A DNA stretch of 64,000 bases from NCBI GenBank assembly GCA_041659685.1, contig JBAZXV010000001.1:24226-88225 (forward strand), read 5' to 3'. The stretch comes from Parcubacteria group bacterium (GTDB lineage Bacteria > Patescibacteriota > Minisyncoccia > Moranbacterales > UBA11712). The notes beneath the pieces were generated by a model. The model was not told the DNA's origin. It ran no database searches and saw nothing but the letters and a program-made list of their open reading frames with translations. Shown here piece after piece: positions 1-64,000 of the stretch. Positions within the stretch are counted from its first letter, which is position 1. Every line of letters begins with the position of its first letter. Both the position numbers and the translations under genes were made by a program.

Positions 1-72
1 ATAACGAAATTTCATGTCGAAGAAATAATTTTATATATCGCGGAATAATCATGTAAATGACCATTGAAGATA

Positions 73-1161: not shown

Positions 1162-1197
1162 AAATAATTATCGGAAAATTAAAAATGACAAAATAGT

Positions 1198-2493: not shown

Positions 2494-2495
2494 AC

Positions 2496-3197: not shown

Positions 3198-3213
3198 TAA
3201 TATTGACAAGGTC

Positions 3214-4550: not shown

Positions 4551-4614
4551 CATATTTTCTACAAATTTATTGAGTTAAATTAGGTTAATATCAAGATATA
4601 ACAGTGCTAAGTTT

Positions 4615-10500: not shown

Positions 10501-10699
10501 AATGATAGCTGACGGATTAAACGGTTTTGTGGCAAAATCAATTTCTGCAAGAGGTATTGATGAGTGTCTGGAATGGGCATGGAAAAAAAGAAGGGAGTGG
10601 AAAAAGTTGGGCGAAAACGCAGGAAAAATAGTGCGTGATAAAGTCCCTGAATTTCCTCATAAGCAGAGCATCGAAGAAATTGAAAAACTATTAAGCTAA
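7562..10699 (+). CDS. tri-domain glycosyltransferase fusion (GT4-like, GT2, GT4-like)
   Basis: 1045 aa. N-terminal GT4 E-x7-E region 'EAFPLSILEAMAFSLPIISTDVYGISEQIEDGKDGLL'. Central GT2 'VSVVVPNYNYENFLEERLRSIVLQTYKPYEIIFLDDNSKDGS'. C-terminal GT4 'RMEGTPISLVDSLLCYRMAIVTPVGGMPEMIADGLNGFV'. Overlaps upstream gene by 29 nt. Confidence 0.75.
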   Translation: MVYSGSKKTNRKSILLVTHNLNLEGAPLFLFNLAKGLKKMGYYVNLLSPSDGPLKDTFLREGIDVDISDFAAKEFDSSSFKGKYVAIIVNTIVGYKFLSKIDLKKEKTIWCLHESEREIYFRAFPDLEKSIFARVGKVVFSSKATREVYEDLNISGNFTIINTVGDWKEIDNYLKNNSKEKVRERYGFKESDVLISQIGTICPRKGQFELTEAAVSILKKSNNPNIKFLLIGGGRGYELEKTIRKLISANGLRDRIIIVNETEQIFDYYLMSDIFICNSYIEAFPLSILEAMAFSLPIISTDVYGISEQIEDGKDGLLIMAGDKKELEKKILYLLENKKKAKELGKNARKKIDYEFGFDEMINKYSRLISSKASGAHLKVSVVVPNYNYENFLEERLRSIVLQTYKPYEIIFLDDNSKDGSVELAKNFLSKIDIPHKIIKNESNVGCFKQWARGVREAVGDLIWIAEADDSCEPDLLEELATKFEDPEMGLAYTQSRRIDEFGKKEETYLPYLESIPGAGSRWKKDYINSGADEISKYLIIKNTIVNASAVLMRKSLLVDLGENIGEGLSQAGDWITYVRILSKSKIAFVAAPLNYHRHHSKTIVSRSGENTEAKAKQLIDETLYVQKFILSRFKVNRRRLTFALEHLKLVFRNNFRKELDASSEYSDKLKDYYEAAKNSQKRILFFSTNDGWGGSEVACAKMAQSFAAAGWRVALVMRKHDPRPDLLNSIDSGSSIELFEREPGDYCNSDETSEFVNEFDADIVYISQGHAFESAELMRWCKKNEFKYVNFIPLVTEYQLTFVNDKKDIEKNGELLRASKKIFLDNQNAKKVMRKMFNIAFDNFKIIRNGFDVQYHQEFVWNEPKGDEFKLAFIGRLENVHKGLDMLIEVLSMKKWKGRPLKVMTYGHGPSEESIRQTLERNKMSNFVLCGYTNNLKDSIQGVHGVIFPSRMEGTPISLVDSLLCYRMAIVTPVGGMPEMIADGLNGFVAKSISARGIDECLEWAWKKRREWKKLGENAGKIVRDKVPEFPHKQSIEEIEKLLS

Positions 10700-11703: not shown

Positions 11704-13404
11704 TCAATTTTCGTGTTTGCGGTTTTTGCTGATAATTTTGTCCTCTATCCAAAGAGTGGTCGGAATAAGACTTAAGGATATAAAGAGAAAAATAAGGGGA
11801 TATATGGGACTCAAATAGAGAATGATGATTGAGTGAAATGCTGATACATTAATAATTGATAACAGGATAATTCTGGCAAATATTGCTCCTAAAAGTGAAA
11901 GGGCAATAATCCAGGGAATGTTTTGTATAATTTTTCCTTTCAGGAAGGTTATAAAAAAAATAATGGCGGATAAAAACAGAATGAAAGGCATAATAATTCG
12001 ATACAACTTTGTAATAAAATTCAATATTTCCAATTTGAAATGGCTGTTTTCCTTTGATGCCACATCAGCATAAGTTATGTGGCCGAACAATTGGAGAGAT
12101 TCGTTGTCGCCCACGCTTTCTGATGGCGTTGCAGTGAATCCTTCTAGCCCGGATATAAATACTACCGATTCGCGGACTGAATCTAGCATGGGCTTATTAT
12201 AATTGCTATTCCAGGGCGATGTCATGGATGCTCTTTTTGGGTAACAATCCAATTTTTTCTGGTCGCAGGCTGAATTTACTTCGTCAGCTAATCTCTGATA
12301 GTATTCAATGGCTTTTTTCCCGTTAGAATAATATCCGGCTTGGGCGACTGCATCCCGAAAGGTCCACATAAACCAACCCCCCTTAATCTCGTTCACTCCG
12401 TCTTTTTCCGAGTTCGTGATTGATGTGGCTGTCCATCCTTTTCCAAGATCACCTTCAAGAAACGGCTTTAATTCAGAAAAAGCCGGACTGAACGGATAAA
12501 TCTCAAGGCGTTTTTGGGTAGAAACCGGAACATCTTTTATCCACTGGCCGTCCTTCACCCTGGTCAGTGATCCGTAGGCGCTCAAAAATTGAGGAGCTTT
12601 GAACTCCACAACATTATAAATTCCATATTCGTAATAATTTATTGCCGAAACAAGATTGATCGAAAATAATAAAATTATAAATGGCAGAAAAATCAGGAAT
12701 ATTTTCGTTTTCAGCTGTTGCATTTTTTCTTTCCAAACCGTGTAAATAGAATAAACTGTCATGATCGCCAAAAGGGGGGACAGCCAGACGCCTTCCTCTC
12801 TTGTGAGCCAAAAGGCGGAAAGCGCGAAGCCAGCGATCAGGGACCATAAAAATATTCTTTGAGGCTTTTCTTTCATGCGCAGAGCCAAGCCGATAAAAAG
12901 AGCAGCCATTAAAAGTGTCAGAGGCTGATATATTCCTTCGCGAATAACTCTGGTGGCGGGATCATTTGCGAAACTTACAGGGTTAAATAAGACAATAATG
13001 TAGATCGCCATAAGAGGCCAGCGGCGTTTCTCGAAGACAGGTTTTAATCCGAGAACTAAAACGACAGAGGCTGCGATATAAAGCAAATGCTCTGAAACTA
13101 ACAAGGGAATATGAAGCGCATGATTAAGCGCAATCCACATCGGGTAAAACGGGCCCTTTGCCAGCGTCATGTTACTATATTCCCCAAGCCAATCCAGATG
13201 CATCAAATTCAAAGCCTGATTGATAAATAACCTGTCATCGTGTACCGCAAATCCTATGGCGTATTCATGCTGGCCGCCAACCAAAAACAGCTTAACGCCG
13301 GCCAGGGTAATGATGATAAGCCAAACCCAAAAAGAAAATCCACTCTTTTGATTCAAGAATTTGTTGACGCGATTCAGCTTGTTGATGATATTATTATTTT
13401 CCAT
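11704..13404 (-). CDS. polytopic membrane protein, putative GT-C-fold glycosyltransferase
   Basis: 566 aa, >10 predicted TM segments, first extracytoplasmic loop 'AVHDDRLFINQALN' (acidic motif as in GT-C enzymes). Start codon abuts stop of upstream GT2 (13406). Confidence 0.45.
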   Translation of the reverse strand: MENNNIINKLNRVNKFLNQKSGFSFWVWLIIITLAGVKLFLVGGQHEYAIGFAVHDDRLFINQALNLMHLDWLGEYSNMTLAKGPFYPMWIALNHALHIPLLVSEHLLYIAASVVLVLGLKPVFEKRRWPLMAIYIIVLFNPVSFANDPATRVIREGIYQPLTLLMAALFIGLALRMKEKPQRIFLWSLIAGFALSAFWLTREEGVWLSPLLAIMTVYSIYTVWKEKMQQLKTKIFLIFLPFIILLFSINLVSAINYYEYGIYNVVEFKAPQFLSAYGSLTRVKDGQWIKDVPVSTQKRLEIYPFSPAFSELKPFLEGDLGKGWTATSITNSEKDGVNEIKGGWFMWTFRDAVAQAGYYSNGKKAIEYYQRLADEVNSACDQKKLDCYPKRASMTSPWNSNYNKPMLDSVRESVVFISGLEGFTATPSESVGDNESLQLFGHITYADVASKENSHFKLEILNFITKLYRIIMPFILFLSAIIFFITFLKGKIIQNIPWIIALSLLGAIFARIILLSIINVSAFHSIIILYLSPIYPLIFLFISLSLIPTTLWIEDKIISKNRKHEN

Positions 13405-14647: not shown

Positions 14648-16483
14648 TTACTTGAACACTTTTATGTTGGTTGAGTCGAATTTTTGGTCTATGTCGGATG
14701 ATTCTATCCGGAGGCTTATTAATCTTCTATGATAAACTTTTTCTAATTGATTAATATTTAAAGAAACAAGATTTGAGTTCGTAGTATCTGAGTTTTCTTC
14801 ACTAAATTCGCTGTCGCCTTCAAACAGATAGTATAACTTATCAGTTTCGCCCTCGTTCGGATTGAATAATATTACCGACAGATTATTCGTATCAATAATA
14901 AATCGATTATTATCAGAAGTGGCCGAGTATTCTGATTCAGATATCTCCTTGAGATCGTTCAATCCAATCATCGCATCAGAAGCATTAGCGGGGGTGGTTT
15001 CGCCTTCAATTTTTGTGTTTATGTATGTGTTGACTGCCTCTTTCTTTTGAAGTAATTTGATAAACTCAGAGTGGCCTTGATTGAGTTGGTATATGTACTC
15101 TAAATTTAAGGTAAGCGGAACCAGCGCCAAGGCTATGCCCAGTATTGAAAAAACAATCCTGGATTTTATTCCGGAAATCAAATAAAAAAGATAGCTAAAA
15201 AATATTGCGATCAAAACAATTATTGGGTGAAGGTGCCTCCCCATCATTGCATGCCAGTTTCCATAAAACGAAGCGGCTATTATTTGAAAAATTCCTCCGA
15301 TTGTACCCGCGCTCAAAATTAAAAAAAACAGAAATAATTTATAGCCTCTTTTTTTTCCAATAAAGTAAAGGCTAACGGCCAGCATCATGATTGCGCCAAT
15401 AATCCAAAGATAATTTAAATATCGCGCCAATTGGAAAAAATTCAGATTCCAATGCGGAAGAAAATTGATATTGGTTTCTTCGGGCACCCAGATTTGTTTC
15501 ATAAAAGTAGGAAATGATGATCGGACATAATTCAAATCAATATCTTTATGTCTCGGATTGTCAAATCCAAATTCTGCTTGCTGTACCGTTGCCTGTTTAT
15601 TGGCGGTAAAAGTTCCGTAGTGATTCTTATTGAAGAGAAGCCACGGAAAAATGATGAGAACTGCAACAAAGGAATAGATTAACGAATTAACTATAAAATT
15701 CTTTCTTTTTATCAGGAAAAATAAAAAAACCAATGGAACCACAAATAATACCGCAAATCTTGATAAAATAGCCAAGGCGGTAAAGATACCCATTATGGCC
15801 GCATCATTCGGGGATGCTTGCCGCTCAGGGCTGGCAATAAACTTGCTCATCCACCAAAAAATTAATGAAACAAAGACAACTGGCAGTATGGAATTACCGA
15901 TAGTGACTGCGCGAACGACGATCGAGGGGGTAAATCCGACTATTATTAAGGCCGCAAGAGCGATTAAAAGCTTTTTCCGGACGAATAAGTGATTAATATT
16001 TTCAAATATCTTATAAGCAACGAAAACCAGTGCAAGCAGCTGTATTACTCCCAGAAATCTTAAGAAAAAAGTTTTATAAACAAAACTTGCTCCCGCTGCC
16101 TTATAGAAAGGCAATGCGAGCAGATAATATAAGGGTGGCTGGAAGGCTTCGTATTGCATGCCGGCTAAGCCGTTAGTTTTTGGATCAACCTTAAAAATAT
16201 TACTATCAACGTGCCACTGAAAATTTATGATTTTACCATCAGTGTAATCTGTGAGCAACGGCAATCGCCCATAATCATCCATGAATGTAATGTAAGCAAA
16301 ATGTGCCGACTCATCTACCGGATTGAAATACGGCATTAAAAACATATACATTATTCCGTTAACCAGAAGGATTGCCAAAATAATCCAAATGAAGTATTTC
16401 TTAAAGGGAACAGGGTCGTAAAAAAGAGCAGCGCAAAAAAGGCCAAAAATTAAAATAGTAGGAATATAGAACAATAAAGGCAT
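14648..16483 (-). CDS. GT-C membrane glycosyltransferase (PMT_2/ArnT-like)
   Basis: 611 aa polytopic. Loop-1 'FNPVDESAHFAYI' (DE motif) and 'YEAFQPPLYYLL' resembling the HPPL block of PMT/ArnT-family enzymes. Confidence 0.6.
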   Translation of the reverse strand: MPLLFYIPTILIFGLFCAALFYDPVPFKKYFIWIILAILLVNGIMYMFLMPYFNPVDESAHFAYITFMDDYGRLPLLTDYTDGKIINFQWHVDSNIFKVDPKTNGLAGMQYEAFQPPLYYLLALPFYKAAGASFVYKTFFLRFLGVIQLLALVFVAYKIFENINHLFVRKKLLIALAALIIVGFTPSIVVRAVTIGNSILPVVFVSLIFWWMSKFIASPERQASPNDAAIMGIFTALAILSRFAVLFVVPLVFLFFLIKRKNFIVNSLIYSFVAVLIIFPWLLFNKNHYGTFTANKQATVQQAEFGFDNPRHKDIDLNYVRSSFPTFMKQIWVPEETNINFLPHWNLNFFQLARYLNYLWIIGAIMMLAVSLYFIGKKRGYKLFLFFLILSAGTIGGIFQIIAASFYGNWHAMMGRHLHPIIVLIAIFFSYLFYLISGIKSRIVFSILGIALALVPLTLNLEYIYQLNQGHSEFIKLLQKKEAVNTYINTKIEGETTPANASDAMIGLNDLKEISESEYSATSDNNRFIIDTNNLSVILFNPNEGETDKLYYLFEGDSEFSEENSDTTNSNLVSLNINQLEKVYHRRLISLRIESSDIDQKFDSTNIKVFK

Positions 16484-27365: not shown

Positions 27366-29120
27366 TTATTTAATTTTCCAAATGCCTGCAAGAGAAGTTG
27401 ACTTGATATTCATCGCCAGATCCAAAAAACCTTTCGACGGTTCGTAATAGTTGTTTTCAATAGTGACCGTGTCAAAAGATTTTTTTGCGATCAGGTTATA
27501 ATACCAGGATTTTCTCTCCGCCGGCGGAGCGATGAGATAAATATGCTCGTAGCGCGATTGGTCGATGGTTTCAAGGTCGTCAGCGTTAAAGAAATAAACG
27601 GCGTTCTTTCCATATATCGACGACAGGGGTTCGCTCATAAGGGACCAGCCGCTGTCTGTTGCCATCCGGTCGACCAGGACAAGATCTCGGGAGCCGAATC
27701 TTTCGGATATTTTTTCAATTTGAGGAAGAAGCTCCTTGTTTTCCGGTCTTGTTATGAAGGCGCAGCTCAAAAAGGCATTGGCGGCGGCCAGGGTCAAAAA
27801 AGCGCAGTAAAGAAGCTTTTTATTATGGAAAAACCTGTTCAAGAAATATATCGAGTAAAATATCAGGGCGGGAAAAGCGGCGAAAGCGAAGCGGCGCAGC
27901 ATCCACGGATCGTCGAGAGAAATCATAGGGGAGATGAAATAAAAAAAAGTCGGGAAAGTGATAAATATTGGAATAAATTCCGGTTTTAACCGGCTCTTCT
28001 TAGCGTCCTTTAGGAGCCAGATAATTCCGGCAAAGCCCAGGAAAAGATACGCTAAAATATTATAATTAAAAAATATTCTTATGAGGTGCGGATATGAATT
28101 TGAGGACAGGGCGGAGTCCTGGGCGGAGTTTGGAAGGAACGCTTTAATAATATTTTTGGCGCTGTCGAAAAGGGCGGGGAAATCGAGGAATACGTATACT
28201 ATCAATAGCAGTAAAGCCGAAAAAAAGGTATATTTGAAGAAATTTTTTGGAAGCGAGATTATCTTTTTTTTGCTGAAAATAAACAGGCAGCCGATTGCCA
28301 GCAGGAAAAAGGCGATTCCTTCAATGCGGACAAGGGCGGAAAGGCCGAAAGCGGACAGGGCGACAATAATTTTCAGGGATGAATTTTTTGAGGCCGGATC
28401 CCTGAGGGAAGCAATGAGGAAATAAACTCCTGTCCAGATGAGGAAAAGAGAAGAAATTTCCGTGAGGGTATATTTTGTAAACCAGAGAAACGGGAAAAAG
28501 GCCGCGGCAAGAAGGAATCCGAGGAAAGAGATTTTTTTCGGGAAAAATTCTTCAAGGATGAGCCAAAAGACAGCCAAAAAAAGAAAGAGAAAAGGCAGGT
28601 TGGAATATTGTATTCCCGGCAGTCCGAAGACAGCATAGGCCGCGGCAAGGTATGACGTGTATCCGACTGGAAAACGGGACAGCAGCTGGCCGTTCTTTGT
28701 ATAATCGAATCCCGGATAATTGAGCGATTTGCCGGCTCCGTATTTTTGAAAAAGATCGCGGGAAAGAGGAGTTTCGAATTTCAATTCATGATTTTTGGAG
28801 AGGTTTATGGCCGCGGTGGAAATTGCCCCCTGATCGCGTCCGCCAAAAACAGTGGGAACGGAAAAATAGCCGGTTATGAGACTTGCCGCAAAAGCGGTAA
28901 AAAGAACCAAAATAATCATTTTTCCGGATTCTTTCGCTTTTTTGATTATTAGATTATGGCTTATATAAAGCGAAATAATAACCCCTATGACGATTGACAA
29001 AATGACTGTTTCACGGTAAAATAAACCGATTGCTGAAAACAGCAGGATGAGCCAGCCAAAGGCTAAAAAGAAGATAATGATGCGAAAAAATATGTTTCTG
29101 ATTACGGATTCAAAATTCAT
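27366..29120 (-). CDS. ArnT-like GT-C membrane glycosyltransferase (third paralog of 35381 and 37124)
   Basis: 584 aa polytopic; loop-1 'GGRDQGAIS' corresponds to the 'DQARDA' motif of the tandem paralogs (cf. ArnT 'DEARYA'). Confidence 0.55.
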   Translation of the reverse strand: MNFESVIRNIFFRIIIFFLAFGWLILLFSAIGLFYRETVILSIVIGVIISLYISHNLIIKKAKESGKMIILVLFTAFAASLITGYFSVPTVFGGRDQGAISTAAINLSKNHELKFETPLSRDLFQKYGAGKSLNYPGFDYTKNGQLLSRFPVGYTSYLAAAYAVFGLPGIQYSNLPFLFLFLAVFWLILEEFFPKKISFLGFLLAAAFFPFLWFTKYTLTEISSLFLIWTGVYFLIASLRDPASKNSSLKIIVALSAFGLSALVRIEGIAFFLLAIGCLFIFSKKKIISLPKNFFKYTFFSALLLLIVYVFLDFPALFDSAKNIIKAFLPNSAQDSALSSNSYPHLIRIFFNYNILAYLFLGFAGIIWLLKDAKKSRLKPEFIPIFITFPTFFYFISPMISLDDPWMLRRFAFAAFPALIFYSIYFLNRFFHNKKLLYCAFLTLAAANAFLSCAFITRPENKELLPQIEKISERFGSRDLVLVDRMATDSGWSLMSEPLSSIYGKNAVYFFNADDLETIDQSRYEHIYLIAPPAERKSWYYNLIAKKSFDTVTIENNYYEPSKGFLDLAMNIKSTSLAGIWKIK

Positions 29121-39744: not shown

Positions 39745-42081
39745 ATGATTAATTGTCAATTATTCCGCCAAGCAATGTTTAATTTGAGGAAAGAAAAATT
39801 ATATATAATATTATTCTACGCCGTACTGACGATAGTTCTTACCTGGCCTTTTGCTTCACGTTTCTTTTCATCGGTTCCAAGTCTCGGTTCGGACACGATG
39901 CAGGTTATCGGAGTGGCGGGGGAAAGGGCAAATGTCATCAAGGACCTTGGTTTTTGGAAAGGCACATTCGAACTGCTGAAGCGTTCGGAATTCAACGTCG
40001 TCACGCTTTATTCTTATTTTGAGCTTATTTTCGGCCGTATAGCCGGTTATAATCTGCTTTTTTTCGCCTCTTTTGTCCTTTCCGGATTCGGAATGTATCT
40101 TTTGGCTTTTTATTTTACGAAAAACAAGCCGGCATCACTTATTGCCGGAATTATTTTCGCCTTTTCTCCGTTCCACGTGCATAATTCCTTGAGCACGAAT
40201 GTCGGGACGATGCATCAGGAATGGCTGCCTTTTTTTGCGCTGTACCTTTTTAAATTTTTTGATTCCGCGAAAGGAAGCGATAGCGGCTCGAAAGAAACAG
40301 ATAATAGCCTCCCCGGCGGCCAAGCTCTCCCCGGCGGAAATGGCAGTTTGAGGCTCAAAAACTTCCTGCTGGCAGGCTTGTTTTTGGGACTCATCGCTTT
40401 CACCGAGCATCAGCTCCTTGCCTTCACTTTGATCTTTATTTTATTTTTTCTTGTTTATAAGATTTTTACGCAACCGAAAATATTCATTAAAGGAAAACTA
40501 TGGCTCTATGTGATTGTGAGCGTTGCGATTCTTTCGGCGGTGTCCTTTCTTATGTTCCGTTCGCTTTTTGAAATCGCCTTTTCAGGAAATAATTATCTCG
40601 ATCCGGGATTCAAGGCGGCGGTCAAATACTCAAATGACGCGCTGGCAATTATTATTCCCCCCAGTTTTCATTCCTTTTGGCCGGATGCCTTTTCTCACAT
40701 CCGGGAAACTTTCAGGAGGCGAACCGACAGCTCATTTTCAATCTATGCCGGATTTTCGGTGCTTTTGTTGTCCATCCTTGGCATGGCGGGAATGCGATCC
40801 CTTCGAAAGCGTCGGATTCCAACGAGGGGGATATGGTTTTGGTTTGCAACGGCACTCGGTTTTTATATCCTTTCGCTTGGGCCGCATCTCAACTATATGG
40901 GGGAAATCAATCCGCCGGTTAAGATGCCGTATCTTCTTGCCTATAACTATCTTCCGTTCTTCAATAATATCCGGACAGTGGGGAGGCTGTTTATATATTC
41001 GATACTCTCGTTTTCAATCCTTGCGGCATGGGGAAGCGCGTATCTGATTTCAAAAGCCTCGCCTAAAAATGAAGAGGAGAAGGAAAAATTGGCGAAGGAT
41101 GATAACGCAAAAGAAAGGCGAACTGATCTTTTTGGCGTCAATCTCAAGCAACAAATCATTGTGTCTTTGATCAGCCTCGTTGTTATTGTCGAGTATCTTG
41201 CCGTCCCATTCAAGACGAATACCCTTTTGCACTCGTCTTTTTACGATAAATTGGGGCAGGACAAGGAGAATTACAGCGTCCTTGAAATTCCGGGAAGCAC
41301 GAATTATGATTTTGCTTCGCGCGATCTGGTCTGGAAGAGCATTCACAGGAAAAATACGGTCAACAGCTATGACTTTGCCCGGGAAATCGACGAAAACGAC
41401 GTCTTTCAAAAAGGGACTCCCATCGTACGGACTCTTCTGTATGATATTTCCAATGAGGACAGCGGAAACGACCGTGACATTATGAAAAATTCGTACTATA
41501 ACATTTCAAGCGAAATATTAAATTACTACAGCATTCGCTACGTGATTCTCGACAAGGAGGGCCTTAAGGGCAATCCGGAAAAGGGCGATCTGAATATGCT
41601 TTATCCCGCCAAAGCCTATATAAGCAATGTGATAAAATGCGCTGATGAATATGAAGATGAATATCTTTATGCCTGCCGGATTGATCAAACCGACGTTCCC
41701 GATCACATGTTTCTCGCGATGGATTACAGCAACAAGCATTGGGTTGGGAAAAGCAAATCTAAAAACGGAATTCAAAGATGGGCGGAAAACGGGGCCGGAG
41801 TAAAACTTGTCAACATGACGAATCAAATTCAAAGCAGCAAGCTTAATTTTGATGCGAAAATATCAAAGCCGCTTCGGCTCAAAGTGTTTTTTAACGGAGC
41901 GGAGATATATAATCAGTACCTGACGTATCTTGGAAAAAAGCAAACGATTTCCGCAGATCTTCCAAGCATCAATCCGGGAGAAAACGATGTCACTTTTGGC
42001 GTTTATGCGGCTGACGGGACCGAGATTAAAACGGATAAAAAATCAGACTCCGTGGTTATTTATCAGGTGGAAGTAGAATAG
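39745..42081 (+). CDS. large polytopic membrane protein (778 aa) with extracytoplasmic C-terminal domain; possibly YfhO/GT-C-like, family uncertain
   Basis: About 10 TM in the first ~450 aa, then a soluble ~330-aa tail. No diagnostic motif recognised. Confidence 0.5.
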   Translation: MINCQLFRQAMFNLRKEKLYIILFYAVLTIVLTWPFASRFFSSVPSLGSDTMQVIGVAGERANVIKDLGFWKGTFELLKRSEFNVVTLYSYFELIFGRIAGYNLLFFASFVLSGFGMYLLAFYFTKNKPASLIAGIIFAFSPFHVHNSLSTNVGTMHQEWLPFFALYLFKFFDSAKGSDSGSKETDNSLPGGQALPGGNGSLRLKNFLLAGLFLGLIAFTEHQLLAFTLIFILFFLVYKIFTQPKIFIKGKLWLYVIVSVAILSAVSFLMFRSLFEIAFSGNNYLDPGFKAAVKYSNDALAIIIPPSFHSFWPDAFSHIRETFRRRTDSSFSIYAGFSVLLLSILGMAGMRSLRKRRIPTRGIWFWFATALGFYILSLGPHLNYMGEINPPVKMPYLLAYNYLPFFNNIRTVGRLFIYSILSFSILAAWGSAYLISKASPKNEEEKEKLAKDDNAKERRTDLFGVNLKQQIIVSLISLVVIVEYLAVPFKTNTLLHSSFYDKLGQDKENYSVLEIPGSTNYDFASRDLVWKSIHRKNTVNSYDFAREIDENDVFQKGTPIVRTLLYDISNEDSGNDRDIMKNSYYNISSEILNYYSIRYVILDKEGLKGNPEKGDLNMLYPAKAYISNVIKCADEYEDEYLYACRIDQTDVPDHMFLAMDYSNKHWVGKSKSKNGIQRWAENGAGVKLVNMTNQIQSSKLNFDAKISKPLRLKVFFNGAEIYNQYLTYLGKKQTISADLPSINPGENDVTFGVYAADGTEIKTDKKSDSVVIYQVEVE

Positions 42082-49675: not shown

Positions 49676-50833
49676 ATGAATACTTCATATAGCGCGCTCG
49701 ACACATTTCTGACGTGTCCCAGAAAATATAAGCACCAGGTCATCGACAGAATAAAAACTCCCAAATCCAAGGAACAATTTTTCGGCACGCTCCTCCACAG
49801 CACGCTTAAGGTGGTGCATACGCCCGGGATACTTTCCCCCACCCTTGAGCAGGCTCTCGACTTTTATTCCAAGAATTGGAACGCGGAAGTATTCTCCGAT
49901 GAAACTGAAGAGAGGGCGGCGTTCGCCCAGGGAGTTTCGATGCTGCAGGATTATTATAAGAAAAACGATCCTTCTAAAATCAACATCGTCGATCTGGAGT
50001 CCCGTTTTCAGGTAGAAGTAGGATCCACTGGATCCGGAAAAGAGAAAGAAAGCGAAGTAAAGGAAGAAAAGCACATAATTACCGGCATAATCGACCGGAT
50101 TGACCGAACCGAAGACGGATTCGAAATAATCGACTACAAGACCACCCGCAAATTGCCCAGCCAGGAAAAAGTGGATAATGATCTTCAGCTTTCAATCTAC
50201 CTTGCCGGTTTTTTGAAACGATATCCCAATGAAATCGAAAATCTCGGAAAGATTAAAGTTTCTCTGTATTATCTTAAGCACGGCGTGAAATTGTCCTCGC
50301 AAAGAACCCTTGAGCAGGTGAAAAAGAGCGAGGAACTGGTGCTTGATCTCATCGGACAAATACAGAAATCTGATTTCGAACCGACAATTTCCGGGCTTTG
50401 CGACTGGTGCGGATTCCAGGATATCTGTCCGATGTGGAAACACAAATTCAAAGAGAAGGAACCAATAGATATTGATACCGCAAAAATAATTGAGGAATAC
50501 ATATTTCTTAAGGATGATGTAAAATCGAAATCCGACCGGATCGGAGAATTGCAGGAAACTCTCAGCAGTTATATGGATAAGGAAAAAGTCGACCAGGTTT
50601 TTTCGGACGCCGGAAGGATATTGCGCTCGATACGCAAGACATACAAATATGAAAAGGAAAAATTGCGCTCGATTCTTGAACCGCTCGACAAGTGGGATGA
50701 TGTTCTTAAAGTCGACGGAATTGCGCTAAAGAATATTCTTGGCGTTCTTCCTTATGAAACGAAAAAAGATGTTGAAAAAGCTAAAATTTTGGATAAGGAG
50801 TCGAAAAGTTTTGTAGTGAAAAAGGGGAAGTAA
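49676..50833 (+). CDS. PD-(D/E)XK nuclease with Cas4/AddB-type 4-Cys cluster (RecB-family exonuclease-like)
   Basis: N-terminal 'YSALDTFLTCPRKYK' (first Cys); 'GIIDRIDR' (motif II D); 'EIIDYKTT' (E-x-K); C-terminal 'CDWCGFQDIC'. Confidence 0.7.
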   Translation: MNTSYSALDTFLTCPRKYKHQVIDRIKTPKSKEQFFGTLLHSTLKVVHTPGILSPTLEQALDFYSKNWNAEVFSDETEERAAFAQGVSMLQDYYKKNDPSKINIVDLESRFQVEVGSTGSGKEKESEVKEEKHIITGIIDRIDRTEDGFEIIDYKTTRKLPSQEKVDNDLQLSIYLAGFLKRYPNEIENLGKIKVSLYYLKHGVKLSSQRTLEQVKKSEELVLDLIGQIQKSDFEPTISGLCDWCGFQDICPMWKHKFKEKEPIDIDTAKIIEEYIFLKDDVKSKSDRIGELQETLSSYMDKEKVDQVFSDAGRILRSIRKTYKYEKEKLRSILEPLDKWDDVLKVDGIALKNILGVLPYETKKDVEKAKILDKESKSFVVKKGK

Positions 50834-55922: not shown

Positions 55923-56756
55923 TTAACGCTTATTAATTTTTTCACGATGAGGGTTTGTTTTTCTGCAATACTTCCAAAAATATTTTATGGCGCTCTTAAT
56001 ATGCTCCCTTGTCAGCCGATTCAGGAGAACGGCTTTAAACGCGCCTCTGCCCACCGAACCCTTTCCGTGATAATGAAACATTTTAACGCCCGGGAAATAA
56101 ACGATCCTATGATTTCTTTCCCAAAATCTTCGGCACCAGTCCACATCCTCAAAATACATAAATCCGAAATTTTCTTCCATTGGACCGACTTCGTCAATAA
56201 CTTTTCGCGGCGCCATTATCGCCGATCCCATTATCCAGTCGACTTCTTGCGGTTTCTCTAAATCCTTATCCTTATACAAAAAATTGTCTATCCTTTTTCT
56301 CGCAAATCCGAATTTTCCAAGGGATGTTCGCCGATATAATATGATAAATGGAGAGTAAAAACGGAAGCAGGATGGTTGCGTTTTTCCGTCAAAGTTTAGC
56401 AGTTTCGGACCGATAATGCCAATCGACGGATCTTTTTTCAGCTGTTCGAGCAGAATGTCAGCGGACCTTTTTTCGATTATGATATCCGAATTTAATATCA
56501 GGACGTATCTTCCTTTTGCATTCTTAAGTCCTCTGTTGACGAGCTTGGCAAATCCCAGATTGTTCTTATGCGAAAAAAATATAATCTCGGAAAATTCCTC
56601 TCTCATCATCATTTCCGTATCCTCCTCCGTGGAGCTGTCGAGAACCATAATTTCGCAGTTCTCGTTCAGCACGTTCTTTTTGAGTGACTCCAGACAAAGC
56701 CGAAGAACCGATGGATTTTTATAACTCGTCACAATAATGGACAGGTCCGTATTCAT
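55923..56756 (-). CDS. family-2 glycosyltransferase
   Basis: 'LSIIVTSYKNPSVLRLCLESL', 'EIMVLDSSTEEDT', 'ILNSDIII'. Confidence 0.75.
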   Translation of the reverse strand: MNTDLSIIVTSYKNPSVLRLCLESLKKNVLNENCEIMVLDSSTEEDTEMMMREEFSEIIFFSHKNNLGFAKLVNRGLKNAKGRYVLILNSDIIIEKRSADILLEQLKKDPSIGIIGPKLLNFDGKTQPSCFRFYSPFIILYRRTSLGKFGFARKRIDNFLYKDKDLEKPQEVDWIMGSAIMAPRKVIDEVGPMEENFGFMYFEDVDWCRRFWERNHRIVYFPGVKMFHYHGKGSVGRGAFKAVLLNRLTREHIKSAIKYFWKYCRKTNPHREKINKR

Positions 56757-56789
56757 TTTTCGTTTCTGATGCTAAATTTGTTAACCGCT

Positions 56790-57848
56790 TTATTGAAATA
56801 CATTCTTTATGGCCTCATGTATTTTGTCGTAGTTCCCTCCGACGGGAAGCAGGATATATGTTTTCCCTTCGGGAGTGTCGGCTTTTGAAGAATAAAGGAG
56901 CCCTTCTTCCGATGTGTCAAAAACCTTTTGTTTTATTTGAGGGTCATGCATTTGGCTGGCGAGATCAAAAGCCTTTTTCATTTCGGAAATATCCATATCA
57001 GCTCGCACATCATCGCCGAGGATGTTCATGACGCTGCTTGCTTTGTTGAAATCAGCCAGTGTTCCCAGACTGAGCAGTTTGTCTTTCAGGGCGATAAGAA
57101 CCTGCTGCTGTCTTTTTGCTCTCTCAAAATCAGATGATGCATATCTGGCCCGGACGAAAAAAAGCGCTTTCTGGCCGTCGAGATGATTTTTTCCGGCAGG
57201 AAGGGAGAAATTTAGCGCATCTTCGCCTTCGAATTGGGTCGGCTCGGAAAAAGGCTTTTCGATATAAATGTCAACGCCTCCAACCGTATCGACGAGTTCC
57301 TTAAAGCCCTTGAAGTCGATTCTGACCACATAGTGGATTGGAAGCCCTGTGACTTCACTGATAACTTGCTTCATCATCTCCATTCCGTCACCTTCTCCTT
57401 TTTCCTCATATAAGGCATGAACAGCGTTGATTTTGCTGTGATTCGTTGTTCCCGGATCCTGAACATACAGGTCGCGAGGAATCGAAATCAGGGCTACTTT
57501 GTTTTCCTGAGGCCTTACGGACGCCACCATTATCGTGTCAGCCAAAAGTCCTCCTCCGGGCATATCGTTTCCCCGCATGCCAAGAAGAAGGATATTTATC
57601 TGTCCCTCTTTTTGTCCCTGGAGCTGATCGGCTCCAATGCCGGGAATTGACTTCCAGAGGCTTTTCATGAAACCGTCCTTCGTGGATATTTTACTCAGTG
57701 TTGTGCCGGCCCTGAACATTGCATATCCTCCAGTGGCAACCAAGAGGAGGATTATCACCAGCAGTATCTTGAACCATCTTTTTTTGTAAGATTTTTTCTT
57801 TTTTGGCTCATAAGCCTCCCGACTGTTTCGCCTTGAAAAAAACCCCAT
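56790..57848 (-). CDS. LytR-CpsA-Psr (LCP) family cell-envelope glycopolymer transferase
   Basis: 'INILLLGMRGNDMPGGGLLADTIMVASV', 'ALISIPRDLYV', 'KINAVHA'. The track ORF extends to 57968; ATG 'MGFFSRRN' at 57848 is preferred (N-terminal TM follows). Confidence 0.7.
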   Translation of the reverse strand: MGFFSRRNSREAYEPKKKKSYKKRWFKILLVIILLLVATGGYAMFRAGTTLSKISTKDGFMKSLWKSIPGIGADQLQGQKEGQINILLLGMRGNDMPGGGLLADTIMVASVRPQENKVALISIPRDLYVQDPGTTNHSKINAVHALYEEKGEGDGMEMMKQVISEVTGLPIHYVVRIDFKGFKELVDTVGGVDIYIEKPFSEPTQFEGEDALNFSLPAGKNHLDGQKALFFVRARYASSDFERAKRQQQVLIALKDKLLSLGTLADFNKASSVMNILGDDVRADMDISEMKKAFDLASQMHDPQIKQKVFDTSEEGLLYSSKADTPEGKTYILLPVGGNYDKIHEAIKNVFQ

Positions 57849-57960
57849 ATTTTTAAGATTATGCTTCAAAATAAAAAACAAACAGCCTCGCGGCATCTTT
57901 TGTGAGTATATTATAAATCTTCCGAAATGGCAATGCAAATAATAGTTTTTTAAATTGAAA

Positions 57961-57984
57961 GACGGCAATCCGAAAATTGCCGTC
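57961..57984 (-). terminator. perfect 9-bp hairpin (gacggcaat/attgccgtc) followed on the minus strand by a T/A-rich tract; lies 155 nt downstream of the sigma gene
   Basis: Seen directly. Minus strand: 'gacggcaattttcggattgccgtc tttcaatttaaaaaac'. Confidence 0.45.
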
Positions 57985-58139
57985 AGTTTAAGAAAATATC
58001 GTTAATTTTTCGGCACCCGCCTGAATATTCATTGGGTGCTGAAGACTATCTCTCCGCGTTCCTCCGCAACTTGCAGAGAGGTTTCCCCTTTGATCTTTGA
58101 GTAAGACAGAAAACAAAACGAACTCATTAATTCAATTCG

Positions 58140-61100
58140 TCAGCTTTCTTCCAAGACGGGAACCAAATACAACCGAAGCTTCTCCAGGGCATTTTTGCGC
58201 AGCTTTGTGAAAGCATGCATTGTAAGTTGCATATCCCGAAGAGCGTCGTCCCATTTTTGGATCTTGCATCCGTTAAATTCATAGAGCCGGGAGATCAGCT
58301 CTTTTTCATCATCGTGCAGGAACAATAATACTGTTTCCGGGTTACTGCCGGGCAGGATATTGATTCCGAGATCTTTTAACAGCTTTACGGGCCATTTGCT
58401 TCTCCGGGCTTTTATTATCCCGGCCAAAACGGGAAAGGCGGCCAGTATGCGTTCTTTTGCGTTATCTGCGAGATGCTGGGCTACCAACGCTCTTTTTCCC
58501 CAACGCTCCCCGATAGTTTTTGGATTTATTTCCCACCTGGAATGAAGAGCCAGGAAACACCTCGCCTGATCCGTGGTTGGAAGACGAAAGCCCCTTCCCT
58601 GAAGAAAAAAATAAGCAATATCTTTCGGGGAAAGTCGTTTGACGCCATTTCCGAGCGTTTGCTGGAGTTTTTCCGTCGAAACGCCTTCCTGGAGCAATGT
58701 TTTAATTGTTGCTGCATCATTGAAGGTTTCCTTGGAAAGTGCCTCGAACCAACGAAGCGCTTCCGGCCATAAACCATGGTAAGACATTTTTACGGAAGAA
58801 ACCTGAAGACGAGAAATGTCGGATTGGCCGTCCGGCAGGTTTCTTCTCAAGAATTCCTCAAGCTTATCCAGGGTTGCTCTCTTTACATCTCTGACCCTCT
58901 GCGGGCGGATTTTCTGGCGAGAGGCGATTTCCTGGGGCTCAAAGAATTCTTCAGAGAAAGAAAGGCGGAAAATTTCCAATTCATGAGGATGGAAATTTCG
59001 AAACGCGTTTGCTATTTGCATGGGATTGCAAAGCAGAGCAATCTTACTTTTCATCCGCTTGAATAGCGCATAAAATAATTCGCTCGTCCAGCATTCCTGG
59101 GCTATAGTCAAGCGTTCGGAATCCAGTTGAAGGAAATTTCCCAGAGCTTCCTCATAGGCTTCGTTTTTCAGGTACGGCTTAACGTTAAGGCCGAGAAATC
59201 CTCTGATAGCCTCGAGAGCATCCCGCTTGGAACTGCATACCGTCTCGCGGACAACGTTTAATCGGCAGCTTGTGTCAATGCCGCATAATTTCTCTTCGTA
59301 AAGAAGCCTCAAATATTCTCCTATGCGCCAACTTCTGCGAAGAGAGTAAAGAGCATAGGCGAGATCTTGAGGACCTCTCAATAAGCATCCGCTTTCCCCG
59401 ATATCCAAAAGAAGCTTTTCTGACCAGATGGAACTGGCCAGATCGGAAGTTTTCCTGCTCGGCGGACCTAGATTTTTCCGTATCTCCTCCCAGACCTGTG
59501 AAAGAGTGCTTTTCTTTGGCAAAAGAGGAATCCCGGAGACGGCGCTGTGTTTTTCTTTGCGGGGTTCCGTCTTGAGAAGATAAGGAATCGGCCTTGTGTC
59601 CTGAGAGCAGCCGAAAAAACTCTTAAATTCTGCCGCTCCCTTTTGGCAGTCAAGATTTTGGAAGAGAAAAGCCTCTACCGCTTGAATAATTTGCCGTCGT
59701 ATATGGGCAAAGAACTCCTCGCTTTTTCCGGAGTACTCACAAACGCCTTTGGTGAGGGCGATATTGCCTTCCCCCGTGAGGTCGAGAAAATCGTCTGCAT
59801 CCATTTCGAAATCGCAACCACTTGATATAATCGCTTCCAACGCGATATTGACAACTGTTGAGAGGTTAGCTTCAATCAGTGCTTCATCTGCCAGAGGATT
59901 TTCCCGAAATTCCAATGCAATTTTTTGTTCTCTTTCGGAAAGAGTTTCGATTGCAAAGATTTTTTCGAGATATTCCCTAAAGGCAGGATTGTCGGCGGAT
60001 GGGTTCAATATTCCGATTACCCGATCAACCTTCGTTTTTGGAAAATACAGATTTTTCTCAACTCGGTTAACGGATTGCGGCGCTTGATGCGCCGGTTGGA
60101 TGCCGGGGATCTTATTTTCACCCAAAACCGAACTCATTATCCCCGCTTTTTTGAAAACATCCAGCACTTTTTTGGACGGATTTTTGTTCAATCCCTGGAG
60201 ATATTCAAGATATGGACGGATTTTTCGAAAAGCGCGCGCTTCAATTTGCCGGATTCTTTCGCGAGTTACCCGCCGCTGGTTCTTGCAGAGAGCAATTACT
60301 TCCGGAACGGCAGCAATTGCGTCCAGGGCTAAGGGAATTGCGCCTTCGAAGCCGCATCGAAACTTAATGACTTGCCAGTCGACGGGACTTCTTTCAAGTG
60401 CAATCCTGCAAATGAGAGCAATTTGCTCTGAATGCATTTTCCCTTCGCAAATTTCAAGCGCTGATTCTTGCGAATTGTCTGTCGTGAAATCTTCCAGACT
60501 GTCCCCGTCGTCTCCGACAGGAGATTCGAGGGATAACGGTTCCTTCATTATCGCCGTTAGTTTCCGCACTTTCTCTACGGAGCATTCCATCTTTTCGGCT
60601 ATCTCGCTCTCAGTAGGTTCTCTGCCAAGATCCCGGGTCAGATAATTGGAAACACCGCGAAGTTTGTTGATAGTCTCGACCATATACGTGGGAATGCGAA
60701 CCGTGCGGGACTGATCGGCGATGGCCCGGGTGATTCTTTGGCGAATCCACCATGAAGCGTAGGTGCTGAACTTGTAGCCGCGTTCATATTCAAATTTTTT
60801 AACGGCTCGCATGAGACCAATAGCGCCTTCTTGGATCAGGTCAATGAGTTGTAATCCGCGGTTGGTATATTTCTTGGCAATACTGACAACCAGGCGCAGA
60901 TTGCGAACTACAAATTCCTTTTCCGTTTCTGCGGGGTCTCCGGGCTCAGATCCACGCATAATGCGGGCAATTTTCCGCTCTTCTTCTCTCGACAGGTTGG
61001 GCGATTTATTTCTCTTCAGGATGCGAAGGAAAATGGCCAAAGGATCATCTGAAGAAGAGGAAGCTTCCTGTTCGTCGTCGCTGATTAGAGATTCCGTTGG

Positions 61101-61199
61101 CGGATGTTCTTCAAGCTCGGCCAGTTCTTTGTCGAGCGGTTCCCTGTCTTCTTGCCCCACGTCAGGGACAAGATCAAAAAACTCGTCTCCCCCGTTCAT
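58140..61199 (-). CDS. rpoD: primary (group 1-like) sigma-70 factor with ~690-aa C-terminal extension containing a second region-4-like HTH
   Basis: RpoD box '[27 protein letters not shown]'; region 2 '[31 protein letters not shown]'; region 4.2 '[20 protein letters not shown]'. Start re-set from GTG (61250) to ATG 'MNGGDEF', preceded by AAGGAG at -7. Second sigma-4-like segment '[41 protein letters not shown]' lies about 430 aa further C-terminal. Confidence 0.8.
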
Positions 61200-61241
61200 G
61201 GGTTTCTCCTTTATTTTATTTTTTAAAAGAGCAGAAGAAAA

Positions 61242-61263
61242 AAAGAGCACCCTCCTGCTCTTT
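61242..61263 (-). terminator. hairpin (aaagagca/tgctcttt) plus T7 tract between the upstream GT4 gene and the sigma start; terminator or leader attenuator
   Basis: Minus strand: 'aaagagcaggagggtgctcttt ttttcttctgctctttt', ending about 40 nt before the sigma ATG. Confidence 0.4.
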
Positions 61264-61306
61264 ATTCAGTCTATAATAAAAAGCTTAAAATATCAAATAT
61301 TGCCTT

Positions 61307-62434
61307 TTATATGATGTTTTTATATATAGCGAGAGTTTTTTGCGCCATATTTTGCCACTCGAATTTTTTGGCGGATTCGATGCCGGATTTGATTAATTTT
61401 TCCTTCAAGGATTGGTCGCTTAGTATTTTTGAAATATTTCCCGTGAATTCCCCGCTGCTTTCGGGGTCGCAAAAGAGAGCCGCATCTCCTGATATCTCCC
61501 GAAAAATCGGGATGTCAGAGCAAACTATCGGGGTGCCGGCGGCTATTGCTTCAATAATAGGAATGCCGAATCCCTCGTAAAGGGATGGTAAAACAAAACA
61601 ATCAGCCATTTGAAGCAGGACCGGTTTATCTTTTTCTTCGATCCAACCGGGGAAAATAACTCTTTCTCCAAGATTGTTTTTTGAAACAGTCTCGTCTATT
61701 TTTTTGTCGAAATTATGCGCTTTTCTGTTGCCGGCAATGACCAGTTTTATATTAAGACCCTTAATCGCTTTAATAATAACTGGAATATTTTTTCGCGGCT
61801 GAAGCGTGCCGATATAAAGCAAATAATTTTCCGGAAGGTTATATTTTTTCCTGACGTTTTCTTTTTCTTCGCCGGAAAAATTATGACCGTATTTTTCGGC
61901 CTCAACTCCGTTATAAGCAAAATCCACTTTTGCGGGAGAAATTTTGTAAAAATCGGCGATGCTATTTTTCTCGCTTTCGGAAACAGTGATTACTTTGTCC
62001 GCTCGCCGGATGCTTCTCGGGATTAGTGCTCTAAGGAAAAGCAAATCGGAATATTTTATATATTGAGGAAAATAATTAAACGAAATATCATGAATTGTAA
62101 GCATTAATTTGATGTTTTTTGGCAGCCAAAAAGGAGCAATATACTGAGTATGGAAAATGTTGACCGGATTCTTCTTGAGATAATTCGGAAGCGCCCAAAG
62201 ATTCCACCAAAAACGACTCGGCGAGTTCAGGTAAATTATTTTAAAGTTGGATCCAAGCTTTAACGATTCTATTTCTCTGGCCAGAAGCCTGTCTCTTGCC
62301 GGGTCGCGGTCGATAAAAAGAAGATAATGATTCTCTTTATCAATCCGCGCCAAATATTTAACCAGGTTGAAAAAATAAACCTCGCCCCCGGTCTGTTTTT
62401 TTCCTATTAATCTGATGTCTATTCCTATTCTCAT
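61307..62434 (-). CDS. GT4-family (GT-B) glycosyltransferase
   Basis: 'MRIGIDIRLIGKKQTGG' (typical GT4 start); 'VLPSLYEGFGIPIIEAIAAGTPIVCSDIPIFREISGDAALF' E-x7-E. Confidence 0.8.
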   Translation of the reverse strand: MRIGIDIRLIGKKQTGGEVYFFNLVKYLARIDKENHYLLFIDRDPARDRLLAREIESLKLGSNFKIIYLNSPSRFWWNLWALPNYLKKNPVNIFHTQYIAPFWLPKNIKLMLTIHDISFNYFPQYIKYSDLLFLRALIPRSIRRADKVITVSESEKNSIADFYKISPAKVDFAYNGVEAEKYGHNFSGEEKENVRKKYNLPENYLLYIGTLQPRKNIPVIIKAIKGLNIKLVIAGNRKAHNFDKKIDETVSKNNLGERVIFPGWIEEKDKPVLLQMADCFVLPSLYEGFGIPIIEAIAAGTPIVCSDIPIFREISGDAALFCDPESSGEFTGNISKILSDQSLKEKLIKSGIESAKKFEWQNMAQKTLAIYKNII

Positions 62435-62460
62435 TATATTTTGCCTGTCATGAGTCCGAA

Positions 62461-64000
62461 TTATTTCGAACTGGAGACGACAACTTTCTCAATGCTTATG
62501 ATTAATGCCAGTCCGATCCAGAAAATTCCCATAAAAAGTCCCGCGTTGAATAAATTTGGGACCAACAGGGCCAGAATTCCCAACACCGAAAATAAATAAA
62601 ATGTTTTCCTGGTATCTTCCCTCACGACCGGGCAGCCGATTATTCTATTGAGCGGGCATACGGGCGAAATGCGGCGAAAAGAATAGATGAAAAGAAATCC
62701 AAAAACCGCAATGAAAGCCGCCATTCCTAAGATTCCGCACCCTGCCCAGACCTGAAGAAATATATTGCTTTCATTGAGCCCCGCTCCCCGTTCGTCATCT
62801 CCCAAATTTTGCGTAATGGTCCCGAAACCGACTCCGAGGACGGGATGCGTTTTTATTATCTCCCAGCTTTTTCGGTAAATCATGCCTCGGGTCATTACAT
62901 TCGGGTCCTTTCGGTAAATTTCGACCACGTTTTCCCCTCGCGATTTGAAGGATTCTATATCCTCAAGATTGATATGCTGGCAATTGTGTTTTGCGAGCTC
63001 GTCAATACTGGAGACAACCGGCGGAACATCCGAATCTTTATTGCAGGCAATCGTTATTTTTTGCTCATTGGTCGCTGTCGAGCGGGCGCGATCAAAAATG
63101 TCGAATTTCGAAAGATTCCCGAAGTGAATCGCGGAAAGAGAAATTCCAACTACAACAAGAACTGCCGCGAGATTATTTCTGAAATCTCGTACTGAGAAGG
63201 TTATTTCTGCGCCTGTTTTTCTAAAAAAACTAAGGAGCAGAAAAACAGCCAGCAGCAGCGCGGAGCCAATCCAGGCCGAGCGGGAAAGCGTAAGCACCAA
63301 GAGAGTTATGTCTAAGAAGACGAGCAAGCCGAGTATTGCCAGAAAATAGTTTTTAATAGCCGCCAGCTTTGGCTCTTTGTGCGTTAAGTAGTGGACGCAA
63401 GACAGAAGAACAGCCAGAGCAAAGCAAAGGTATATCCCCAGCCAATCGGGCTCGGCAAAAGTGGAATTAGGCCGCCCGAACATGATTTCAAAAGATTTGG
63501 CGCCGAATTTTTCGGCAAAAACCTGGTAAAATCCGTAAGCATTAACCGCGATATATGAACCGATAAAAAAGAGAGCGGTCTTGATTGCGTCATCCCGGTT
63601 TCTTGTGAAATTGCGAATCAGATAATAAAGAACAATAAAAGAAATTAAGATCAAGTTATTTTTTAAAATCGCGCTCTTGCTGGAAGAAGCGAGCAGCGGA
63701 AGAAAACTGAGAGGCGCCAAAGAAAAAACAAGCCAATCAATCCAACTCGGTTTAAGGAATTGGCAATTTAGTTTTTTGGATGTGCCGAGAATTGCCATAG
63801 CGGCAACCAATATTCCTCCCAGAAACTGATAGGGCCGGATTTGAATCGGTAAAAATCCCGAAGCTAAAATAATATTTTCGAACGGAACAAGGCTTATAAA
63901 AAGGAAAAAAATCCAGCGGGGACGGTAAAGCGCGACAAGAAGTGATAAAAGAGAAATGAAGACAAAATCCCCTGTCTCAAGAGGCAGTCTGCCTTTGTTC
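62461..64000 (-). CDS. O-antigen ligase/polymerase-like (Wzy_C) polytopic membrane protein; reading frame remains open to the window edge (5' end possibly outside)
   Basis: 'ESNIFLQVWAGCGILGMAAFIAV' resembles the Wzy_C 'H-N-x-y-L-e-x-l-x-e-x-G-i-x-G' block; >10 TM. Hand translation of the minus strand from 63811 to 63999 shows no stop. In-window starts are TTG at 63810 or ATG at 63798. Confidence 0.6.
   Translation of the reverse strand, partial: NKGRLPLETGDFVFISLLSLLVALYRPRWIFFLFISLVPFENIILASGFLPIQIRPYQFLGGILVAAMAILGTSKKLNCQFLKPSWIDWLVFSLAPLSFLPLLASSSKSAILKNNLILISFIVLYYLIRNFTRNRDDAIKTALFFIGSYIAVNAYGFYQVFAEKFGAKSFEIMFGRPNSTFAEPDWLGIYLCFALAVLLSCVHYLTHKEPKLAAIKNYFLAILGLLVFLDITLLVLTLSRSAWIGSALLLAVFLLLSFFRKTGAEITFSVRDFRNNLAAVLVVVGISLSAIHFGNLSKFDIFDRARSTATNEQKITIACNKDSDVPPVVSSIDELAKHNCQHINLEDIESFKSRGENVVEIYRKDPNVMTRGMIYRKSWEIIKTHPVLGVGFGTITQNLGDDERGAGLNESNIFLQVWAGCGILGMAAFIAVFGFLFIYSFRRISPVCPLNRIIGCPVVREDTRKTFYLFSVLGILALLVPNLFNAGLFMGIFWIGLALIISIEKVVVSSSK

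Follow-up and report, generated by a model that had tools for sequence, protein, structure and literature searches.

A primary-type sigma factor from a Parcubacteria group bacterium continues into what appears to be a degenerate second sigma factor

We describe here a gene of a Parcubacteria group bacterium (assembly GCA_041659685.1, contig JBAZXV010000001.1) that encodes a sigma-70 family factor and then continues in frame for 689 residues beyond amino acid (aa) 330. The stretch of DNA analyzed, referred to below as the window, is 64 kb long, forms part of a 291-kb contig and contains no second sigma factor gene. The minus-strand open reading frame (ORF) runs without interruption over 58140..61250 (-) from a GTG start and would specify 1036 aa. 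We prefer the ATG at 61199; an AAGGAG ribosome-binding site lies 6 nt upstream of it (AAAGGAGAAACCC), and the product is then 1019 aa long. Published annotations differ on this point, IMG taking the GTG at 61250 (1036 aa) and NCBI the ATG at 61199 (1019 aa). The upstream GTG lies within a leader hairpin, immediately after an AGGAGG sequence, and the ATG is supported because the same GTG in the ortholog described below (P0002) does not share the reading frame of the sigma gene. The NCBI entry carries the label 'MAG: sigma-70 family RNA polymerase sigma factor [Parcubacteria group bacterium]', and the databases give nothing beyond sigma-70 family. The gene and the parts of its product, which we call the fusion protein, are laid out as follows, where HTH denotes helix-turn-helix, pI isoelectric point, AF2 AlphaFold2 and pLDDT its predicted local distance difference test score.

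58140..61199 (-), whole coding sequence, 1019 aa plus stop, identical to NCBI MFA5925365.1
61050..61199 (-), acidic N-terminal region, aa 1-50, net charge -15, with the motif MNGxDxFFDLVPDxGQE..EPL..EL.EL
60690..61049 (-), true sigma regions 1.2 and 2, aa 51-170, RpoD-type -10 recognition/melting motif intact
60459..60677 (-), true sigma region 3, aa 175-247, Sigma70_r3
60210..60437 (-), true sigma region 4, aa 255-330, with a hydrophobic insertion of ~10 aa between 4.1 and 4.2 and a conserved recognition helix
60018..60209 (-), basic linker, aa 331-394, poorly conserved and shorter in P0002
59670..60017 (-), putative pseudo-sigma-2 (region 1.2/2.1-2.4-like), aa 395-510, Trp dyad deleted, region 2.2 core-binding residues partly kept
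59112..59669 (-), helical insertion, aa 511-696, 186 aa at the position of region 3, absent from P0002
58839..59033 (-), putative pseudo-sigma-4, a second region-4-like HTH, aa 723-787, detected with TIGR02937 and hhalign
58335..58838 (-), basic helical region, aa 788-955, pI 9.9, conserved with P0002
58143..58334 (-), possible C-terminal three-helix HTH-like unit, aa 956-1019, weak evidence, AF2 island of pLDDT 51-75

As judged from its sequence, the N-terminal module (aa 1-330) is a primary-type (group 1/2-like) sigma-70 factor with an atypical region 4. A phmmer search against the PDB returned RpoD/SigA as the best match (E 1.6e-67), with regions 2-3 near-canonical and the recognition helix of region 4.2 intact, and Pfam places Sigma70_r2 at aa 97-166 (E 9.5e-25, 86.6 bits against a gathering score of 24) and Sigma70_r3 at aa 175-247 (E 4.5e-19, 68.8 bits against 25.3). 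The match of Sigma70_r4 to this first region 4 is partial, covering profile positions 32-49 at aa 311-328 with 22.4-23.3 bits against a gathering score of 24.1. NCBIfam likewise ranks RpoD models top with scores under their equivalog cut-offs (NF004208, 315 against 555; TIGR02393 RpoD_Cterm, 274.9 against 354). Both the Sigma70_r4 and the RpoD equivalog shortfalls arise because of the hydrophobic insertion in the true region 4. The initial annotation had described a complete primary sigma at this end of the protein; primary-type regions 1.2, 2, 3 and 4 can all be recognized (aa 51-330), but with its insertion region 4 stays below the cut-offs of Pfam and of the RpoD equivalogs. The segment containing the insertion (aa 286-305, 60285-60344 (-)) has the highest 19-residue hydropathy of the fusion protein (1.9). 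Pfam finds no match to region 1.1 (Sigma70_r1_1) in the fusion protein. Its N-terminus instead begins with MNGxDxFFDLVPDxGQE (aa 1-17, 61149-61199 (-); also aa 1-17 of P0002) followed by EPL..EL.EL, nearly invariant between the orthologs, the 17-residue motif being the best-conserved stretch of the fusion protein outside region 2.

The fusion is one real polypeptide and not an assembly artefact. The window and the independent Logan assembly of SRR18595301 (L001) agree at 100% identity across 10,310 bp, and that assembly specifies the same 1019-aa product. An exhaustive phmmer search with the 689-aa extension against 1.84 billion representatives had just two hits, the query protein and P0002 (833 aa, E 4.6e-12), which comes from a separate sample, SRR22388057 (locus L002), and is 33% identical overall. 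This single ortholog, the one relative that our comparison with metagenomes yielded, has the same fused architecture, with the N-terminal motif MNGxDxFFDLVPDxGQE, a sigma module (r1_2, r2, r3 and r4) and a 520-aa extension. The two loci also share their gene order: GT4, Wzy_C, GT4, sigma fusion, LCP, GT2, S41 peptidase, L9, CTP synthase. Extension identity between the orthologs is ~30%, with conserved blocks throughout, the far C-terminus included. The GC content by codon position stays gene-like throughout the extension, where no internal start codon is accompanied by a ribosome-binding site. A shared frameshift artefact is not credible because an independent assembly is identical and a syntenic ortholog carries the uninterrupted fusion. 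The frame thus does run on past the sigma module as the initial annotation had said, for 689 residues where it gave about 690, and the chimeric join or frameshift that it had raised as a caveat is excluded by these two independent observations.

Immediately after the linker, the extension contains a segment that resembles the sigma-2 domain (aa 395-510). When the N-terminal 335 aa are compared with the extension by BLASTP, aa 49-160 align with aa 401-508 (26% identity, E 0.014), and aa 395-515 match one Bacilli SigA with 36% identity over 117 aa (E 4e-8), collinear with regions 1.2-2.4. A two-ortholog profile of this segment aligns with the RpoD sigma-2 profile in hhalign at 97% probability (E 9e-11), and shows no match to sigma-3 and sigma-4 profiles. 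We also obtained matches of the isolated fragment to the sigma-70 superfamily model TIGR02937 (E 4.1e-5) and, on the same residues of the extension, to the PHROGs family phrog_351 'RNA polymerase sigma factor' (E 0.0012) and to the sigma part of the PADLOC model MzaA (E 0.013), whilst SigK models match the sigma-2 part of the P0002 extension (E 5.5e-7). Sigma factors are the only credible family matches on the extension in NCBIfam, PHROGs and PADLOC, and in the phage and defence libraries this sigma-2-like segment accounts for all of them. A short piece at aa 420-435 had been taken in the initial annotation for a remnant of region 4.1; the collinear SigA and hhalign alignments place it instead in region 1.2 of the second sigma-2 domain. 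BLAST does see a local resemblance to 4.1 there (E 0.02), but it is not collinear. The retention of the region 1.2 helix points to a group 1-3 sigma as the source of the second copy.

The residues on which a working sigma-2 domain depends are eroded in this segment. In region 2.3, the FSTYATWWIRQ of SigA aligns with a 4-aa deletion that removes the WW dyad, and P0002 reads FIATEIRQ at this position. Region 2.2 of the fusion protein keeps the D, E, G and N of the canonical DLIQEGNIGL (DLIQEGNIGLMKAV), and the P0002 stretch FLLKQGNKTL (FLLKQGNKTLSGVV) only the G and N. We take the residues kept in the fusion protein to be the equivalents of sigma-70 D403, E407 and N409, and those kept in P0002 to be the equivalents of G408 and N409.

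Further along, about 430 residues after the first region 4, lies the second region-4-like segment proposed in the initial annotation on the basis of the string 'ELEIFRLSF...', which we locate at aa 740-780. Profile comparisons support it. TIGR02937 is an NCBIfam model of 165 positions comprising sigma-2 plus sigma-4. On the extension alone it matches two stretches in the right order (E 1.2e-8), the sigma-4 stretch being aa 727-783 against profile positions 109-164; the isolated 68-aa sigma-4-like fragment gives E 6.7e-5, and on the P0002 extension the model is matched over positions 3-164 (E 0.0018). In hhalign, aa 697-800 align with an RpoD region-4 profile over 62 collinear columns (E 1e-4 to 1.8e-4, 49-58% probability), a score two orders of magnitude better than with sigma-2 or sigma-3 profiles and better than 200 of 200 column shuffles. 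The profile evidence is nevertheless divided, in that Pfam Sigma70_r4 stays under its threshold on the extension. A template-free AF2 model of aa 691-1019, made from an alignment of just the two orthologs, is poor overall (mean pLDDT 44) but contains two islands with pLDDT 51-78, at aa 733-786 and 956-1014, each predicted as helix, loop, helix, turn and long helix. The model supports a three- or four-helix sigma-4 HTH fold for the second copy. Foldseek matches to it have weak E-values and are not attributable to one island; they include the PhyR structures 3t0y_C and 9by5_C. A single-sequence AF2 model of the full fusion protein is uninformative (mean pLDDT 40).

The sequence of the recognition helix does not favor promoter reading. 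Two of the five classical -35-contacting positions are kept in the fusion protein, namely two arginines at what we take to be the positions of sigma-70 R586 and R588, and the presumed equivalents of E585 and Q589 are changed. P0002 lacks 3-9 residues across the HTH turn and the first half of the recognition helix. The idea in the initial annotation that this HTH is a functional second -35 reader therefore fares poorly, given that deletion and the loss of most contacting positions.

The remainder of the extension is less readily assigned. The 186-aa insertion at aa 511-696 has no family match and no sigma-3 signal in hhalign, and aa 788-955 have no family match either. The whole of aa 697-955 is basic (pI 9.4-9.9), as is the corresponding region of P0002. 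At aa 956-1019 we found an rpoS region-4 part (E 0.033) and hhalign matches (E 0.008-0.011) that are not specific to region 4, and the P0002 C-terminus matches HTH_28 (E 0.0016). A third candidate sigma-4-like unit at aa 873-925 (pattern 'LP..T..QAR.F..L...') was rejected, no profile method supporting it. Among the three HTH-like segments hhalign detects no internal repeat relationship. PDB sequences searched with the whole extension returned noise only, and two-sequence profiles built from each HTH-like segment did no better (PI3K, cullin, L29). Family and hydropathy scans reveal no anti-sigma domain, receiver domain (Response_reg) or transmembrane segment in the extension or the rest of the fusion protein.

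Efforts to enlarge the family beyond the two orthologs were unproductive. Word-indexed searches with the extension and with the two-sequence profile found only the fusion protein itself. A scan of genome contigs seeded with conserved extension peptides recovered, by tblastn, only genuine rpoD genes of Bacilli, the dnaG-linked rpoD of two metagenome-assembled genomes. Conserved extension peptides found nothing in metagenome contigs, a scan of viral contigs found nothing, and a degenerate DNA pattern of the N-terminal motif had no match in JGI metagenome contigs. A 642-aa protein from the ENA metagenome set (P0003) scored above ordinary RpoDs in a full-length profile search and was rejected as a relative: it is an RpoD of actinobacterial type, and it scored highly because the query profile holds two sigma-2 modules. 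P0003 itself carries region 2 to the start of region 3 twice in tandem (…ANLRLVVSLAKRY… being the first copy), probably because the contig is chimeric or the gene has recently undergone an internal duplication.

The gene is preceded by a conserved leader and sits in a distinctive neighborhood. Between a promoter-like site and the start codon there is one further feature:

61226..61263 (-), leader stem-loop GAGCAGGAGG...CUUCUGCUC

About 45 nt of this 5' leader are nearly identical in the P0002 leader (L002 8101-8133 (+)), despite the 33% protein identity. The stem has 14 bp in the window (-21.7 kcal/mol, z -2.96) and 11 bp in L002. In one arm AGGAGG forms a decoy Shine-Dalgarno sequence; the other arm has a CUUCU tract, for which the real Shine-Dalgarno would be a further pairing partner. 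The leader can form, too, a shorter alternative hairpin followed by a U-run, resembling a terminator. The hairpin sequence occurs once in the window and corresponds to no Rfam family. In both orthologs the sigma fusion gene lies inside a cell-envelope glycan cluster, which fills much of the window (64-10699 and 55923-63810) and includes genes for a DegT aminotransferase, a pyruvyl transferase, GT2, LCP, GT4 and a Wzy_C ligase. Two further fusions occur in the cluster, a 991-aa methyltransferase with two GT2 domains (4615-7590) and a 1045-aa GT4-GT2-GT4 protein (7562-10699). Elsewhere in the window are four large ORFs with no Pfam match at E <= 1e-5, at 11704-13404 (-), 14648-16483 (-), 27366-29120 (-) and 39745-42081 (+), encoding 566, 611, 584 and 778 aa, respectively, and a 385-aa PD-(D/E)XK nuclease or Cas4-like protein at 49676-50833 (+), with no CRISPR context seen nearby.

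Taken together, the sequence comparisons indicate that the extension is not an isolated extra HTH and appears instead to be a whole second sigma factor in degenerate form, a sigma-2-like part followed by a sigma-4-like part, with a basic tail of ~230 aa whose end may form an HTH-like unit. The two parts are separated by the 186-aa insertion in the fusion protein and are nearly adjacent in P0002, as in extracytoplasmic function (ECF) sigmas. Tandem duplication and fusion of a sigma gene is the most likely origin of the second copy. Because the -10 residues are lost and neither region 2.2 nor the recognition helix is conserved, this copy probably neither reads promoters nor binds core RNA polymerase as a sigma. 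On balance we lean towards the view that the protein is a primary-type sigma fused to a decayed sigma copy that would act in cis as a sigma mimic or regulatory module. A sigma mimic in cis is proposed because PhyR's sigma-like domain, in which the fold is kept without the working residues, acts by mimicry. The pseudo-sigma would offer sigma-2- and sigma-4-shaped surfaces to a partner, which might be an anti-sigma-like protein or might lie in the same chain, as the acidic N-terminal peptide or the true sigma domains; this binding would control when the attached active sigma joins RNA polymerase, and the basic tail might add non-specific contact with nucleic acid. An auto-inhibitory or partner-tethering module, both raised in the initial annotation, is in our view a more likely direction than a second -35 reader.

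Several observations weigh against this proposal. We found no partner protein, anti-sigma gene or receiver domain in the window or at the P0002 locus; the family has two members only, so that every argument from conservation is a single comparison; and the basic C-terminal half of the two orthologs would suit DNA binding no less than regulation. The formal thresholds are also missed, TIGR02937 scoring 34.8 bits on the extension against a curated cut-off of 42.9 and Pfam Sigma70_r4 12.7-19.7 bits against 24.1.

The basic character of aa 697-955 and its P0002 counterpart would suit an arrangement in which the second sigma-4-like HTH, possibly with the C-terminal HTH, reads an extra upstream element and so directs the polymerase to extended or composite promoters. 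The sigma-4 fold and sequence signal, together with the two retained arginines, would point the same way. We nonetheless consider it unlikely, since the deletion in the turn and start of the recognition helix of P0002 makes a conserved sequence-specific contact improbable, the E585 and Q589 equivalents are altered even in the fusion protein, and the Pfam region-4 scores are sub-threshold; nor did a recurrent upstream motif come to light, although no search aimed at one was made. The P0002 comparison also bears on whether the pseudo-sigma-2 still binds the beta-prime clamp helices, so that the protein might bridge two RNA polymerases or let either module occupy the core. That region 2.2 of the second copy keeps the D403, E407 and N409 equivalents, residues whose roles are established for sigma-70, is in keeping with such binding; with only G408 and N409 kept in P0002 the core-binding surface is not conserved, and we regard this arrangement as highly improbable.

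The degeneracy of the extension could also be read as the mark of a relic: a sigma duplicate that became fused in frame and is now decaying with no selected function. Its high divergence (~30% identity between the orthologs), large indels (including the 186 aa present in one ortholog only), lost functional residues and extreme rarity (2 proteins among the 1.84 billion representatives) would all fit. Against this, two genomes whose proteins are 33% identical have both preserved 500-690 open codons, where without selection stops would accumulate, conserved blocks extend along the entire extension to its far C-terminus, and the codon-position composition is gene-like; an extension devoid of function therefore seems to us improbable. 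That a sigma gene and an adjacent sigma-like gene have been joined by frameshift or mis-assembly is barely conceivable. We found nothing in its favor, the difference between 1036 aa in IMG and 1019 aa in NCBI being one of start annotation, and it is contradicted by the identical SRR18595301 assembly, by a distant ortholog from another sample with the same uninterrupted fusion and gene neighborhood, and by the lack of an internal start with a ribosome-binding site. A more elaborate version of regulation in cis would be an intramolecular partner-switch, in which the N-terminal peptide or the sigma mimic alternately masks the true sigma-2 and sigma-4 surfaces. We hold this to be a long shot. Were it true, a single protein would combine sigma, anti-sigma-like and anti-anti-sigma-like functions, a compact arrangement for a reduced genome that has few transcription factors, and the conserved leader RNA hairpin may then add a layer of control.

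Few bacterial proteins have been studied as closely as sigma factors, of which those of primary type are expected to end at region 4. The fusion protein shares with RpoD/SigA (groups 1-2) regions 1.2, 2, 3 and 4, a near-canonical -10 motif and the 4.2 recognition helix, and differs from them in having no region 1.1 match, an insertion in region 4 and 689 extra C-terminal residues; we know of no group 1-2 sigma that does not end at region 4. MzaA, of the MZA anti-phage system, is also long (~700 aa) with a sigma-70 module and appears in the NCBIfam and PADLOC match lists. However, the match runs via the shared sigma domain only (248 bits against a cut-off of 800), the sigma is C-terminal in MzaA, and there are no MZA partner genes near the sigma fusion gene.

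To our knowledge PhyR is the only well-understood sigma mimic, and it is a separate protein from a different lineage. Its sigma-like domain serves as a sigma mimic in the alphaproteobacterial general stress response, where it binds the anti-sigma NepR (PMC4598750). In each of the two proteins a module of sigma-2 and sigma-4 has degenerated and lost the activity of a sigma, as we infer for the fusion protein. They differ in that PhyR's sigma-like domain is ECF-derived and fused to a receiver, whereas the fusion protein has no receiver, and its pseudo-sigma keeps the region 1.2 helix and is joined in cis to an active-looking sigma. No NepR-like candidate is recognizable in the window or L002. 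The likeness to PhyR is one of functional analogy only and not of membership.

Work on ECF sigmas (ECF41, ECF42, ECF44, ECF56 and others) describes a fused C-terminal domain that is thought to modulate the activity of its own sigma in cis (PMC3426412, PMC8999054, PMC7671368). These ECF sigmas belong to group 4 and have SnoaL-like, tetratricopeptide repeat, Cys-rich or other non-sigma extensions. In contrast, the fusion protein is of primary type with regions 1.2 and 3, and its extension is apparently sigma-derived and much longer. In the literature we found no report on a fusion of sigma and pseudo-sigma, on a primary-type sigma with such an extension or on Parcubacteria sigma factors; it would be the first cis-linked sigma and sigma mimic that we could trace. 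The family comprises two members, both from metagenomes. If the extension gates the attached sigma, an uncultured bacterium with a reduced genome could control global transcription without separate anti-sigma proteins. The protein would also illustrate a route of domain evolution in which a duplicated and fused domain loses its catalytic residues while its fold persists. Regulatory C-terminal extensions are already known on ECF sigmas; what is new here is a primary-type sigma fused to a pseudo-sigma.

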